From Escherichia phage NHEP29: 64,000 nucleotides of DNA. Shown piece by piece: positions 52,372-53,768 of this stretch (position 1 is its first letter; the number at the start of each line of letters is the position of its first letter). Under the pieces are notes generated by a model. It was not told the origin of the DNA. It saw nothing but the letters and a program-made list of their open reading frames with translations, and did not search any database. A program made the position numbers and the translations under genes. The stretch lies in sequence record PQ511150.1; one strand, 5' to 3'.

Positions 52372-52611
52372 TTATTTGAATTTCTTGACAATGTTGATAT
52401 AACGTAAAGCTTCAGCATCGATACTTCCAAGAACACTATGAAGAAATGCATCAGCGTAGTATTCCAATTGAACAGGTTCTTTAATCACTTTAGCCGCTTT
52501 GGTTTCAAACAGGCCCATAAGGGCCTTTTTAAGAATTTGTTCGTTAGTGTTCAGTTTAATAGTCAAAATCTCTTCATTAAGTTGGTGATTAAAAGTTTTT
52601 CTAGAAATCAT
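52372..52611 (-). CDS. hypothetical protein (79 aa)
   Basis: ORF; ATGA overlap with upstream ORF. Confidence 0.45.
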   Translation of the reverse strand: MISRKTFNHQLNEEILTIKLNTNEQILKKALMGLFETKAAKVIKEPVQLEYYADAFLHSVLGSIDAEALRYINIVKKFK

Positions 52612-53768
52612 TCCGGGTACCTCAAAGCGTCATCAGAGTTAGTTATATCAATAATAGATATAGAGTTTTCTGCTAACCCGTTTTTAGATAACTGACGTTT
52701 ATAATATCTTTCACAATATGTACACGTCGTCCCACAGATTTCATTAGCACAATCGAAATCCGGATGTCTGAACCACCTTTTTTCTAAAAAGCCATCTAAC
52801 AAAGAGGTTTCAATATTTACTGTATGTGAAAACTCAGTTTCGTTTTCAAGAGTGAAAATAGTCTCTAAAGGCTTCCACAGTTCTAACAAATTACCTTCAA
52901 ACTTTTCAGAAGCGTATGCTTCAAGAACTTTTAAAATGTAGTCTGTGCTACCTGTACGTCCTGAAACTTTGAATTGAGTGATACCAATATCATTATAAAA
53001 TTTCAAATCTTGAGGACGAACAAAACGAGTTCTCAACCAGTTAAATGGGTCTGTATCACGAGCTTTAATACAGTGTTGCATTGGATACCCGTTTAAGGAT
53101 TTAGCATCATCAGCTGTAACATCAGTACTATGGAAAATATAGCAAGAGTCACGATAGCTACAATGTGTTGTATACCCTTTACCGGCATTAGAACAGAACT
53201 CATTTACAAGAACTTCAAATATTATATTGTTCTTATTGCAAAACTCTGCTGCACGCTTCAGGAAAGAAACTGAACGGTTCTTATGAATTCCACAGCAGAC
53301 CTTTTTGATATTGTATTGGTCATGCAAGTATTTGATTTGAGTTACAGCATCGACATGTAGAATTGTTGAAACTTCAATCTCAATGTCTTTATTGACTTCA
53401 CGAACAATTTCCATAACAACAGGGTTAGCGATAGTAATACGCCATACGCCTATTGACCAAAGATACTGAACATAATCCTGAATAGCTTTCTTCTTCCACT
53501 CGACTAGTTCTCTTTTTGAACCAGGATTTATCGTGTTGAGTGTATAGTTAAAGCAAATACCTAATTCGTTACAACGTTTAACGTAATCTTCTAACATCTT
53601 TTTGTCAACGTCAGGAAGCCTAAAATCAGGTCTGGCTGCTACAAAAGCCATTTCTCTTGTAGAGCCGTATACTTCGTTTATCAAGCTATTAGGATAAGTT
53701 TTATTGAGCTCTACGATTTTATCAAGAAGAGCTAAATCAAAATTCGTTCCGATTTTAAAAGTATTCAT
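52608..53768 (-). CDS. Cys-rich protein, putative Fe-S enzyme (weak peptidase-U32-like resemblance)
   Basis: 386 aa; Cys clusters …FCSNAGKGYTTHCSYRDSCY… and C-terminal CANEICGTTCTYC; family assignment tentative. Confidence 0.55.
   Translation of the reverse strand: MNTFKIGTNFDLALLDKIVELNKTYPNSLINEVYGSTREMAFVAARPDFRLPDVDKKMLEDYVKRCNELGICFNYTLNTINPGSKRELVEWKKKAIQDYVQYLWSIGVWRITIANPVVMEIVREVNKDIEIEVSTILHVDAVTQIKYLHDQYNIKKVCCGIHKNRSVSFLKRAAEFCNKNNIIFEVLVNEFCSNAGKGYTTHCSYRDSCYIFHSTDVTADDAKSLNGYPMQHCIKARDTDPFNWLRTRFVRPQDLKFYNDIGITQFKVSGRTGSTDYILKVLEAYASEKFEGNLLELWKPLETIFTLENETEFSHTVNIETSLLDGFLEKRWFRHPDFDCANEICGTTCTYCERYYKRQLSKNGLAENSISIIDITNSDDALRYPE

Follow-up and report, generated by a model that had tools for sequence, protein, structure and literature searches.

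The window, i.e., the whole analysed stretch of 64,000 nucleotides of Escherichia phage NHEP29 DNA (PQ511150.1), contains a DNA-modification cassette located between the genes for DNA polymerase and UvsX. A preliminary description of this cassette reported in it a Cys-rich protein of 386 amino acids, and the ORF check confirmed the corresponding gene, which lies on the minus strand at 52608–53768, starts with ATG and ends with TGA. By sequence identity, its product is RB69p050 (NP_861740.1), further referred to as gp50. The gene is full length in each of the 221 phage records that carry it, and its G+C content (35.3%) is similar to that of the window (37.5%). The start codon of the adjacent gene, gp49, overlaps the gp50 stop codon (ATGA); the scan for promoters and terminators yielded sites no more frequent than in shuffled sequence. 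The genes of the cassette considered here are as follows.

50164..50712, minus strand: gp45, thymidylate-kinase-like nucleotide kinase (phrog_761)
50714..51613, minus strand: gp46:47, glycosyltransferase (arabinosyltransferase 1); hhalign probability of 100% with the neighbor family c1
51613..52329, minus strand: gp48, thymidylate synthase homolog (Pfam Thymidylat_synt), published as a flavin- and O2-dependent 5-hydroxy-dCMP synthase (PMC13326640)
52372..52611, minus strand: gp49, 79-aa ORF with no assigned function; not a chorismate mutase, given negative tests for the latter
52608..53768, minus strand: gp50, 386-aa U32-family protein, candidate O2-independent, prephenate-dependent cytosine-C5 hydroxylase (from the ORF, Pfam, PHROG, the AF2 model, 5D88, and RB69p050)
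53823..54224, minus strand: gp51, HAD-type phosphatase of the UDP-arabinose pathway (PMC13326640)
54209..55894, minus strand: gp52:53, UDP-arabinose pathway enzyme with two functions, sugar kinase and nucleotidyltransferase, here one intact ORF (Pfam; PMC13326640)
56076..56711, minus strand: gp55, arabinose-5-phosphate isomerase with the SIS domain (Pfam/PHROG; PMC13326640)

The DNA of RB69 carries arabinosylated 5-hydroxycytosine (NAR 2026, PMC13326640), and the arabinose of RB69 nucleosides is plain according to NMR. Labelling with 18O2 has demonstrated that the oxygen atom of the gp48 product comes from O2; gp48 uses flavin and is active in E. coli in the absence of gp50 (PMC13326640). Gp55, gp52:53, and gp51 together cover the conversion of Ru5P via Ara5P, Ara1,5P2, and Ara1P to UDP-Araf, whose reconstitution has been reported; gp50 is listed as a “sugar or heterocycle reductase” and left unexplained (PMC13326640). 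Neither the sugar pathway nor the transfers have a step left that lacks an enzyme other than gp50. Database names are of various kinds: “peptidase” in PHROG 5757 and RefSeq, and “putative enzyme involved in UDP-arabinose biosynthesis” in BASEL.

The loose resemblance to the peptidase U32 family mentioned in the preliminary description proved to be real: gp50 matches PF01136 with the E-value of 9.5e-11 and 41.9 bits at the gathering cut-off of 22.4, and, of the 120 homologs listed, nearly all have the same domain in their precomputed annotation. The AF2 model of gp50 has pLDDT 92.5, and the top match in the fold search is 5D88, yielding a U32-type TIM barrel. The latter structure is that of Mk0906, a minimal member of the U32 family from Methanopyrus kandleri, which has 11–14% identity to gp50 and is undetected by the sequence profile; it is 247 aa long and, unlike gp50, has no C-terminal module of four cysteines. 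Sequence searches of PDB with the protein and with a profile of 55 sequences gave no real match, the match to BIM1 being spurious. Thus, one part of the earlier interpretation, the U32 relationship, is upheld by Pfam, the fold, and the active-site Cys pair, and the other, that gp50 could be the missing transferase, is unsupported, as no glycosyltransferase family is matched in Pfam, PHROGs, or NCBIfam, and the fold is a TIM barrel, not GT-A or GT-B. The relevant features within gp50 are the following.

52911..53489, minus strand: Peptidase_U32 (PF01136) core, residues 94–286, the TIM-barrel region (profile positions 2–192 of 233)
53130..53216, minus strand: U32 active-site segment E185...N189-E190-F-C192...H202-C203-x5-C209...H213 (hhalign, independent MAFFT, and conservation)
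52713..52751, minus strand: C-terminal Cys4 motif C340-x4-C345-x3-C349-x2-C352, predicted second metal site (Fe-S or Zn), invariant in 121/121 homologs

Of the E. coli paralogs, RlhA gives the best match in profile comparison (hhalign probability 87%, E = 4e-6), and the match to TrhP is weak (E = 4e-4, the N-terminal part). According to both hhalign and MAFFT, C203 and C209 of gp50 correspond to C169/C176 of RlhA, C170/C177 of TrhP, and C169/C176 of UbiU, with the spacing CX5C in gp50 versus CX6C in the U32 motif; C180 of UbiV falls in the same place. His213 is aligned with His180 of RlhA, and a conserved glutamate, which is the invariant E190 in the hhalign alignment and E185 (conserved in 90% or more) in the MAFFT one, is aligned with E161/E162. 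Hence gp50 has both the glutamate and the two cysteines that U32 O2-independent hydroxylases share (E161/C169/C176 of RlhA, E162/C170/C177 of TrhP); their counterparts in RlhA, TrhP, and UbiU are essential or serve as Fe-S ligands (PMC5727448, PMC6599085, PMC6747719). The third and fourth cysteines of CX6CX15CX3/4C (C169/C176/C193/C232 in UbiU), the four-Cys motif holding a [4Fe-4S] cluster, have no equivalents in gp50, as the segment carrying them is missing from the phage family in the MAFFT alignment. Instead, there are other invariant or near-invariant cysteines, namely, C158, C177, C192, C233, and the C-terminal Cys4; since the canonical third and fourth ligands are absent, we assume that these may complete the cluster ligation. 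None of the NCBIfam equivalogs (UbiU, UbiV, TrhP, RlhA) is reached, the only match being to UbiU with 18.2 bits at the cut-off of 440. Taking all this into account, gp50 is, as judged from its sequence and predicted fold, a divergent member of the U32 O2-independent hydroxylase family, and the phage proteins form a separate U32 subfamily rather than orthologs of the named members.

Cysteines account for 13 residues (3.4%) of gp50, and all three Cys motifs cited in the preliminary description are there: VCCGIH (residues 157–162), FCSNAGKGYTTHCSYRDSCY (residues 191–210), and the C-terminal Cys4. In 121 homologs, extending down to about 48% identity, nine cysteines are invariant (C158, C192, C203, C209, C233, C340, C345, C349, C352) and C177 is retained in 119; given the mean column identity of 52%, this conservation exceeds that expected by chance. 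His213 is also invariant, and His138 and His202 are nearly so, whereas C66, C72, and C159 are unconserved. The region of the C-terminal Cys4 is modeled with pLDDT of about 94. From the Cys conservation, gp50 is predicted to bind metal, probably as Fe-S, and the ten conserved cysteines of its single chain might make up two metal sites.

The comparison with characterised U32 proteins is instructive in several respects. RlhA (YdcP), the 5-hydroxycytidine synthase acting at C2501 of E. coli 23S rRNA, performs the same chemistry as that proposed for gp50, i.e., hydroxylation of cytosine at C5; genetic data show that it needs prephenate and Fe-S, and further cysteines in its C-terminal region are essential too (PMC5727448). 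At that, RlhA is a protein of 653 aa with a large ribosome-binding C-terminal part and an rRNA substrate, whereas gp50 has 386 aa and is encoded in a DNA-precursor context; gp50 lacks C192 and C196 of RlhA and has an 11-residue insertion bearing the invariant N-E-F-C motif. In the case of tRNA ho5U34, a prephenate-dependent, O2-independent U32 enzyme, TrhP, and an unrelated O2-dependent enzyme, TrhO, make one and the same 5-hydroxypyrimidine, and obligate anaerobes retain the U32 route alone (PMC6599085). By analogy, gp50 may correspond to TrhP and gp48 to TrhO, although the substrate of the latter pair is tRNA uridine and TrhO is of the rhodanese type, in contrast to the flavin-binding thymidylate synthase homolog gp48. 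The UbiU–UbiV proteins have experimentally demonstrated [4Fe-4S] clusters (PMC6747719); they take oxygen from prephenate, act on a small molecule, and operate in parallel to the flavin monooxygenases UbiI, UbiH, and UbiF. Unlike the single-chain gp50, they pair as a heterodimer in which each subunit holds one cluster, require the lipid carrier UbiT, and have an aromatic lipid as their substrate. More generally, prephenate is the oxygen donor or a required metabolite for UbiU/V, TrhP, and RlhA (PMC6599085, PMC5727448). As no U32 enzyme has so far been reconstituted in vitro (PMC6599085), the term “hydroxylase” is a genetic inference for the entire family.

The distribution of gp50 homologs was considered in T4-like phages and in 35 other phage or prophage groups, further called the non-T4 set, for which about 10 kb on each side of the U32 gene were visible. 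Within these limits, a gp48-type gene is present in none of the 35 groups, though it could sit elsewhere in the genome; a canonical ThyA is encoded in one contig (L023). The frequent neighbors of U32 are the gp45-type kinase (23 groups), the gp46:47-type glycosyltransferase (20), dCMP deaminase (7), and MazG (5), and other enzymes of free nucleotides, i.e., NMP kinases, NT5C, and dNK, are also seen. Homologs of gp46:47 adjoin U32 in phages lacking the thymidylate synthase homolog, so that, by gene content, U32 stands in place of this homolog in the non-T4 phages. Unannotated neighbor families considered as hidden thymidylate synthase homologs (c14, c15, c18, c19, c27, c28, and the 265-aa protein of type D) were rejected, their hhalign probabilities not exceeding 0.5%, compared to 64% for the positive control. 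Sugar-activation genes co-occur with U32 in 12 of the 35 groups (NT-kinase in 12, HAD in 10, API in 9), whereas operons such as MazG-Tmk-GT-U32 and GP88-GK/MTase-x-U32 do not contain them. In the fourth type of operon, a fusion of guanylate kinase and methyltransferase is found near U32, and the context is at the nucleotide level everywhere. All 12 U32 matches in species (cellular) genomes come from anaerobes or MAGs of anoxic habitats, and the hosts of T4-like phages with U32 are facultative anaerobes in every case seen. On the other hand, gp48-type synthases without U32 are encoded by phages of Acinetobacter (57 records), Rhizobium (20), and Pseudomonas.

Another recurrent neighbor is chorismate mutase. 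In 13 out of 15 T4-like loci, an ORF with the CM_2 domain (36–50 bits at the cut-off of 27) lies directly between U32 and gp48, and the phage chorismate mutase gene, found in 51 phage records, is flanked every time by “peptidase” and “thymidylate synthase.” In the non-T4 set, chorismate mutase, DAHP synthase, or their fusions are located beside U32 in eight of the 35 groups. The DAHP_synth_1 domain of the fusion proteins was also considered as KdsA, an enzyme using arabinose-5-P, and this assignment was rejected, since the DAHP synthase models score 114–221 bits versus 30–67 for KDO8PS. Six-frame translation of the window revealed no chorismate mutase (best E-value 0.11), and thus the prephenate link is indirect for the phage studied here. 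Gp49 was likewise rejected as a candidate chorismate mutase: it has no Pfam match even at E = 10; comparison with the phage chorismate mutase profile gives the hmmsearch E-value of 0.07 and the hhalign probability of 0.2%; its homologs in four loci (L009, L014, L017, L022) are a separate ORF between U32 and chorismate mutase; and the fold search with its single-sequence AF2 model (pLDDT 72) gave nothing significant. In the literature, where coverage of 2025–2026 papers was incomplete, no connection between prephenate, chorismate mutase, or U32 proteins and phage 5-hydroxycytosine was found.

As gp48 needs O2, the cassette would otherwise have no anoxic route to 5-hydroxycytosine. We consider it probable that gp50 is an O2-independent, prephenate-dependent C5-hydroxylase of dCMP serving as a backup to gp48. 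This reading combines the family membership, fold, residue conservation, and gene neighborhoods computed here with the published O2 requirement of gp48 and the known dependence of U32 enzymes on prephenate and Fe-S; from these, we infer what gp50 acts on, what it makes, and that it binds metal and works without O2. In the proposed mechanism, gp50 would hydroxylate a cytosine nucleotide at C5, the likeliest reaction being that of dCMP to 5-hydroxy-dCMP, with the oxygen atom taken from prephenate and the two-electron oxidation carried by one or two Cys-bound metal centers, predicted to be Fe-S. It would thus provide an anaerobic route parallel to the flavin- and O2-dependent gp48, which is encoded two genes away, makes the product proposed for gp50, and shares with it the downstream kinase and glycosyltransferase steps, yet has an unrelated fold (the thymidylate synthase superfamily) and cofactor, takes oxygen from O2, and occurs in phages of strict aerobes without U32. 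Other enzymes of the cassette would subsequently phosphorylate 5-hydroxy-dCMP and, once it has entered DNA, attach arabinose to it. For prephenate, the RB69-type phage in the window would rely on the host (PheA/TyrA), and most related phages likely supply it by their own chorismate mutase encoded next to U32. Points that weigh against this reading are the missing third and fourth cysteines of the U32 motif, the lack of a chorismate mutase in the window, the sugar-activation genes near U32 in 12 of the 35 non-T4 groups, and E. coli Dhakaviruses (JS10 type), which retain gp48 and lack U32, so that U32 is dispensable for some gut coliphages; JS10 also lacks nrdD/nrdG.

Several other roles have to be weighed against dCMP hydroxylation. 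The chemistry could be retained with a different substrate, i.e., cytosine in DNA, dCTP/dCDP, or a ribonucleotide, and the evidence from U32 chemistry and prephenate serves such substrates equally well; moreover, RlhA and TrhP, the characterised U32 enzymes that hydroxylate pyrimidines, have polymers as substrates (PMC5727448, PMC6599085). We regard this as unlikely: Pfam finds in gp50 the core at residues 94–286 alone, and the large C-terminal extensions with which RlhA and TrhP bind RNA are missing, the U32 neighbors are enzymes of free nucleotides (NMP kinases, MazG, dCMP deaminase, NT5C, dNK), and the full replacement of C in a phage with dCTPase demands a modified dNTP pool, as in the T4 paradigm (PMC13326640). 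The hydroxylation of host or phage RNA to ho5U or ho5C, which would tune translation in the manner of TrhP or RlhA and be unrelated to DNA modification, has a very slim chance. T4-like phages do encode tRNAs and RNA-modifying functions. The tRNA and rRNA modifiers are the closest characterised relatives of gp50 (PMC6599085, PMC5727448); however, gp50 scores far below all NCBIfam equivalog cut-offs, has no RNA-binding C-terminal domains, and the U32 gene is set in cassettes for DNA precursors and DNA glycosylation across unrelated phage lineages. That gp50 is a true peptidase of the collagenase-like kind, the name found in most database records after the historical name of the family and the “peptidase” labels, is scarcely credible, given that every E. 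coli U32 member studied for its function has been connected with hydroxylation rather than proteolysis, and that ten invariant or near-invariant cysteines, the nucleotide-metabolism context, and the adjacent chorismate mutase do not befit a protease.

Two further explanations leave gp50 in the cassette and deny it the hydroxylation of the base. Its position between the HAD phosphatase gene and the base-modifying genes, the BASEL annotation, the published “reductase” label (PMC13326640), the co-occurrence with sugar-activation genes in the non-T4 set, and the frequency of TIM barrels among sugar enzymes are consistent with a step of UDP-arabinose biosynthesis, or with tailoring or reduction of the sugar. 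We nevertheless find such a role improbable, as the steps to UDP-Araf all have their enzymes (PMC13326640) and the arabinose of RB69 nucleosides is plain; the Acinetobacter phages DLP3 and Maestro make poly-arabinosyl-5-hydroxycytosine with no U32 gene, and JS10 and PspYZU05 are also devoid of it; U32 occurs in operons without sugar-activation genes; and the adjacent chorismate mutase is left unexplained. Similarly, gp50 could be a redox helper of gp48, e.g., a flavin reductase providing reduced FMN to a two-component flavin monooxygenase, and this is highly unlikely: the two genes occur separately, U32 without a gp48-type gene in 35/35 non-T4 groups (within about 10 kb on each side), and gp48 in Dhakaviruses and 57 or more Acinetobacter phages that lack U32; gp48 works in E. 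coli when gp50 is absent; Pfam gives gp50 no domain for the binding of flavin or NAD(P)H; and, again, chorismate mutase remains unexplained. O2-independent hydroxylation of dCMP by gp50 is the reading that we prefer.

If gp50 indeed acts in this way, U32 hydroxylases, so far known for RNA and quinones, would gain DNA precursors as substrates and viruses as carriers, and there would be a reason for phages to carry chorismate mutase and DAHP synthase genes. Bacteria infected in the gut and in sediments often grow without O2, yet the known route to arabinosyl-5-hydroxycytosine needs it; an anaerobic enzyme would explain how the modification, and hence the protection from restriction and CRISPR, persists under anoxia. 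It would also be a small, soluble, single-chain U32 enzyme with a simple water-soluble substrate. For phage therapy and engineering, it would follow that DNA modification and host range might vary with oxygen and with the aromatic amino acid pathway of the host, and phage groups with and without a gp50-type gene should differ under anoxia.

A broader, tentative possibility, in which we place somewhat less than even confidence, is that this subfamily constitutes the main, and possibly older, pyrimidine-nucleotide C5 hydroxylase of phages from anoxic habitats, feeding O-linked DNA hypermodifications, while T4-like phages keep both routes. It would then be the first U32 enzyme known to act on a free nucleotide and a DNA precursor; its product would receive arabinosyl or different glycosyl groups via gp46:47-type transferases and perhaps become 5-methoxy via the fused kinase–methyltransferase, the phage-borne chorismate mutase or DAHP synthase–chorismate mutase genes would boost the supply of the oxygen donor, and T4-like phages of facultative anaerobes would be able to replicate over the whole range of oxygen.

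The 386-aa protein gp50 belongs to the U32 family (Peptidase_U32, PF01136). The simplest account of the data, which we regard as reasonably probable, is that it hydroxylates a cytosine nucleotide at C5 without O2 and with a requirement for prephenate. The gene and the fold were already known; in the literature searched, the gene has no assigned function, and the role proposed here would be a variation on known U32 enzymes. The family, fold and residue conservation of gp50 were established in this analysis, along with three sets of comparative evidence (the chorismate mutase partner, loci lacking a thymidylate synthase homolog, and distribution relative to oxygen).

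The source of the window is a T4-like coliphage of the RB69/JS09 type (Mosigvirus); phages UGJNEcP1 and JS09 are 98.5% identical to it over the 7-kb cassette region, and the T4 gene order (polymerase, clamp loader, UvsX, gp41) is kept. The gp50 gene (RB69p050, NP_861740.1) is elsewhere named "peptidase," "hypothetical protein" (HY126), or "putative enzyme involved in UDP-arabinose biosynthesis" (BASEL). The relevant features are:

53768 (ATG) to 52608 (TGA), minus strand: gp50, 386 aa
52372-52611, minus strand: gp49, 79 aa, Cys-free, phrog_8601; its ATG overlaps the gp50 stop codon (ATGA)
51613-52329: gp48, thymidylate synthase (TS) homolog
54209-55894, minus strand: one intact ORF, 561 aa
50714-51613, minus strand: one intact ORF, 299 aa

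Due to the overlap, gp49 is probably translationally coupled to gp50. Its homologs occur only in some T4-like phages, between the U32 and chorismate mutase (CM) genes, and the ORF annotated in HY126 has just 40 aa; the AF2 model consists of three helices at low confidence, and a fold search with it gave no match. The 561-aa and 299-aa genes are split in the RB69 reference, as ORF052/053 and gp46/47; their intact state here is consistent with the published view that these splits are sequencing errors. A promoter-like site (53822-53849, minus strand; TTTAAA, 16 nt, TATAAT; 10/12 matches) lies immediately 5' of the gp50 ATG and overlaps the gp51 end; such sites around gp50 are no more frequent than in shuffled sequence.

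The modified base of RB69 DNA is 5-hydroxycytosine (5hoC) with one or two arabinoses attached, not hmC (Lee et al., PMC13326640). 5-hydroxy-dCMP is made by gp48; FMN co-purifies with this enzyme, and 18O labelling traces the incorporated oxygen to O2. UDP-arabinofuranose is supplied by gp55 (arabinose-5-phosphate isomerase, API), gp52:53 (NT-kinase), and gp51 (HAD phosphatase), and arabinose is transferred by gp46:47 (glycosyltransferase, GT) and gp3 (PMC13326640). As these enzymes cover base, sugar and transfer, each pathway step is assigned to a protein other than gp50. Acinetobacter phage DLP3 makes tri-arabinosyl-5hoC from a cluster without a U32 gene, and Lee et al. cite the routes of the E. 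coli U32 hydroxylases RlhA and TrhP as unrelated pyrimidine hydroxylation, with no connection to gp50 (PMC13326640).

The three Cys motifs quoted in the preliminary description are all present in the ORF. When gp50 is aligned with its 120 top homologs (identity down to ~48%), nine cysteines (C158, C192, C203, C209, C233, C340, C345, C349, C352) and H213 are invariant, C177 is conserved in 119 of 121 sequences, H138 and H202 are almost invariant, and C66, C72, and C159 vary. The loose U32 resemblance noticed earlier was borne out by comparing the family profile with E. coli U32 paralogs: RlhA was the top match (probability 87%, E 4e-6, 202 columns), followed by TrhP (E 4e-4) and UbiU (E 5e-3), while UbiV gave no match. 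According to both hhalign and an independent MAFFT alignment, C203/C209 correspond to C169/C176 of RlhA, C170/C177 of TrhP, and C169/C176 of UbiU, H213 corresponds to H180 of RlhA, and a conserved Glu (E190 or E185) to E161 of RlhA and E162 of TrhP. The residues aligned to C203, C209, and this Glu are essential in RlhA and TrhP (PMC6599085, PMC5727448), and the corresponding cysteines of UbiU and UbiV are [4Fe-4S] ligands (PMC6747719). Metal sites in gp50 are thus predicted from the invariant cysteines and their alignment to UbiU/UbiV ligands, as had been suggested.

The segment bearing the third and fourth canonical U32 cysteines is absent from the phage family in the alignment, and hence a cluster, if bound, must be completed by other invariant cysteines. 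RlhA also requires cysteines in its C-terminal region (PMC5727448), a parallel to the C-terminal Cys4 of the gp50 family. Residues C345-GTT-C349-TY-C352 (window 52713-52736, minus strand) have the spacing and aromatic residue of the radical-SAM motif CX3CX(aromatic)C, probably by coincidence; given the fourth cysteine, C340, and the C-terminal position, C340–C352 more likely form a fully ligated auxiliary cluster or zinc site than a radical-SAM site, judging from the sequence.

Among the retrieved loci (44 viral and 12 from species genomes), a frequent neighbor of the U32 gene is DAHP synthase (DAHPS) fused to a CM domain (Pfam DAHP_synth_1 and CM_2). KDO8P synthase was rejected as its identity (NCBIfam, 30-67 bits vs. 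114-221 bits for DAHPS). The profile of this protein also detects small ORFs matching its CM part alone, nine of them independently confirmed by Pfam (36-68 bits; cut-off 27).

L032:8411-9433, L035:7302-8357, L036:8332-9387, L055:6928-7956, L034 (partial), phage/prophage contigs: DAHPS with C-terminal CM, adjoining U32
L021:9384-10130: DAHPS without CM, adjoining U32
L009-L020 and L022, about 11155-11900 per locus (e.g., L012:11155-11400): stand-alone AroQ-type CM, 78-132 aa, between U32 and the TS homolog

The fused protein is an auxiliary metabolic gene product for the shikimate-to-prephenate branch. The CM gene lies directly between U32 and gp48 in 13 out of 15 T4-like loci, and tblastn finds it in 51 sequenced phages of Klebsiella, Serratia, Yersinia, Enterobacter, Edwardsiella, Erwinia, Pectobacterium, Providencia, Morganella, Kosakonia, and Shewanella, as well as in Escherichia phage EcS1. 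Annotated CM records are flanked by "peptidase" and "thymidylate synthase," and a few depositors label the gene chorismate mutase. Prephenate, the product of chorismate mutase, has been proven to donate the oxygen in the UbiU/V reaction, and we are aware of nothing else that would explain a CM gene inside a DNA-modification cassette. Prephenate is also required by TrhP (PMC6599085) and RlhA (PMC5727448). CM is absent from the RB69/Mosigvirus type, including the entire window, and from L008; the window phage would therefore rely on host PheA/TyrA. In the literature searched we found no explanation for the stand-alone CM gene and nothing connecting phage 5hoC with U32, chorismate mutase or prephenate; recent papers may already treat gp50.

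Outside T4-like phages, U32 loci form 35 groups (95% U32 identity; metagenomic loci viewed with ~10 kb on each side). Within these flanks, none of the 35 has a gp48-type gene, and unannotated neighbor families are not TS-like; the only TS-family gene is a canonical, full-length ThyA (L023:5500-6351, a 230-kb viral contig; Pfam 243 bits), which retains the Asn characteristic of dUMP-specific enzymes and adjoins gp46:47-type GTs, NT-kinase, and U32. Partners include a gp45-type Tmk-like kinase (23 groups), the gp46:47 transferase homolog (20; hhalign probability 100%), NT-kinase (12), HAD (10), API (9), CM and/or DAHPS (8), dCMP deaminase (7), and MazG (5). Two operons recur: GT, API, NT-kinase, DAHPS-CM, HAD, U32; and primase, x, MazG, Tmk, GT, U32, Pol III alpha, the latter being the RB69 order gp45, gp46:47, gp48, gp49, gp50 minus the TS homolog. 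U32 also adjoins dCMP deaminase, Tmk, UDG, and Pol III on a 466-kb contig, and NT5C, dNK, and nucleoside deoxyribosyltransferase on others. A fourth operon type comprises GP88 (PF17338), a guanylate-kinase/SAM-methyltransferase fusion, a ~265-aa protein without Pfam match, and U32:

L002, L043, L056, L059, L060, L061 (Phocaeicola faecalis isolate), L062: GP88 four-gene module, directly upstream of U32

The gene content of this module points to a pathway of hydroxylation, O-methylation, and phosphorylation that yields a 5-methoxy-pyrimidine nucleotide; if true, this would be an undescribed DNA modification. The context shared by non-T4 U32 genes is free-nucleotide metabolism plus an enzyme using a hydroxyl group, whose sole candidate source is U32.

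All 12 species-genome matches are strict anaerobes or MAGs of anoxic habitats (including Erysipelotrichales, Oscillospiraceae, Romboutsia, Tannerella, Phocaeicola faecalis, Gastranaerophilaceae, Angelakisella, and Woesearchaeota). U32 occurs in 221 sequenced-phage records, all at least 80% identical, and hosts among the matches listed are facultative anaerobes only (Enterobacterales or Shewanella). The gp48-type synthase occurs in 373 records, with 57 Acinetobacter and 20 Rhizobium phages among the matches listed. Cassettes of Acinetobacter phage Maestro and Pseudomonas phage PspYZU05 contain HAD then TS, without U32 or CM; Erwinia phage Vettismorki has both. Suggestively, NrdD occurs in 2864 phage records, with Acinetobacter outside the ten commonest host genera. 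The E. coli Dhakavirus group (JS10) departs from the U32 host pattern, having gp48 and neither U32 nor CM. JS10 (L069, NC_012741.1 40182-41568) lacks nrdD/nrdG between nrdH/55.8 and gene 49, where Mosigvirus JS09 (L070, NC_024124.2 124224-126508) has both; this single comparison hints at a generally reduced anaerobic toolkit in the group, and the two losses may be linked.

Taken together, the CM partner, the TS-less loci and the oxygen distribution uphold a base-directed oxidoreductase as a candidate, one of the roles proposed in the preliminary description along with U32 membership and metal sites. Its other proposals did not hold: transfer belongs to gp46:47 and gp3, and sugar tailoring is weakened by a sugar pathway complete in U32-less phages and by U32 operons without sugar genes, which also make action in the sugar branch unlikely. 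We assign a similarly low probability to a gp50 that performs this hydroxylation on DNA or on a different form of the nucleotide, and infer dCMP as the substrate. A flavin reductase serving gp48 is very improbable, as the two genes are mutually independent; an RNA hydroxylase is less probable still, and a true peptidase hardly credible. As a hydroxylase, gp50 would be the anaerobic counterpart of gp48, whose O2 dependence, like the properties of other U32 enzymes, is taken from published papers; the pairs TrhP/TrhO and UbiUV/UbiIHF offer parallels. Likewise predicted for gp50 are its product, its metal content and its independence of O2. The chemistry of the U32 hydroxylase family itself rests on genetics and labelling rather than on in vitro reconstitution of any member.

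A more distant, second U32-like paralog (377 aa; L002:13227-14357, 4 kb downstream of the first; also in L003 and L052) adjoins a gene for a radical SAM/SPASM protein and one resembling nucleoside 2-deoxyribosyltransferase. Genes for NT5C, dNK, and an NMN transporter lie in between, and a radical SAM/SPASM gene is likewise found near U32 in L001.
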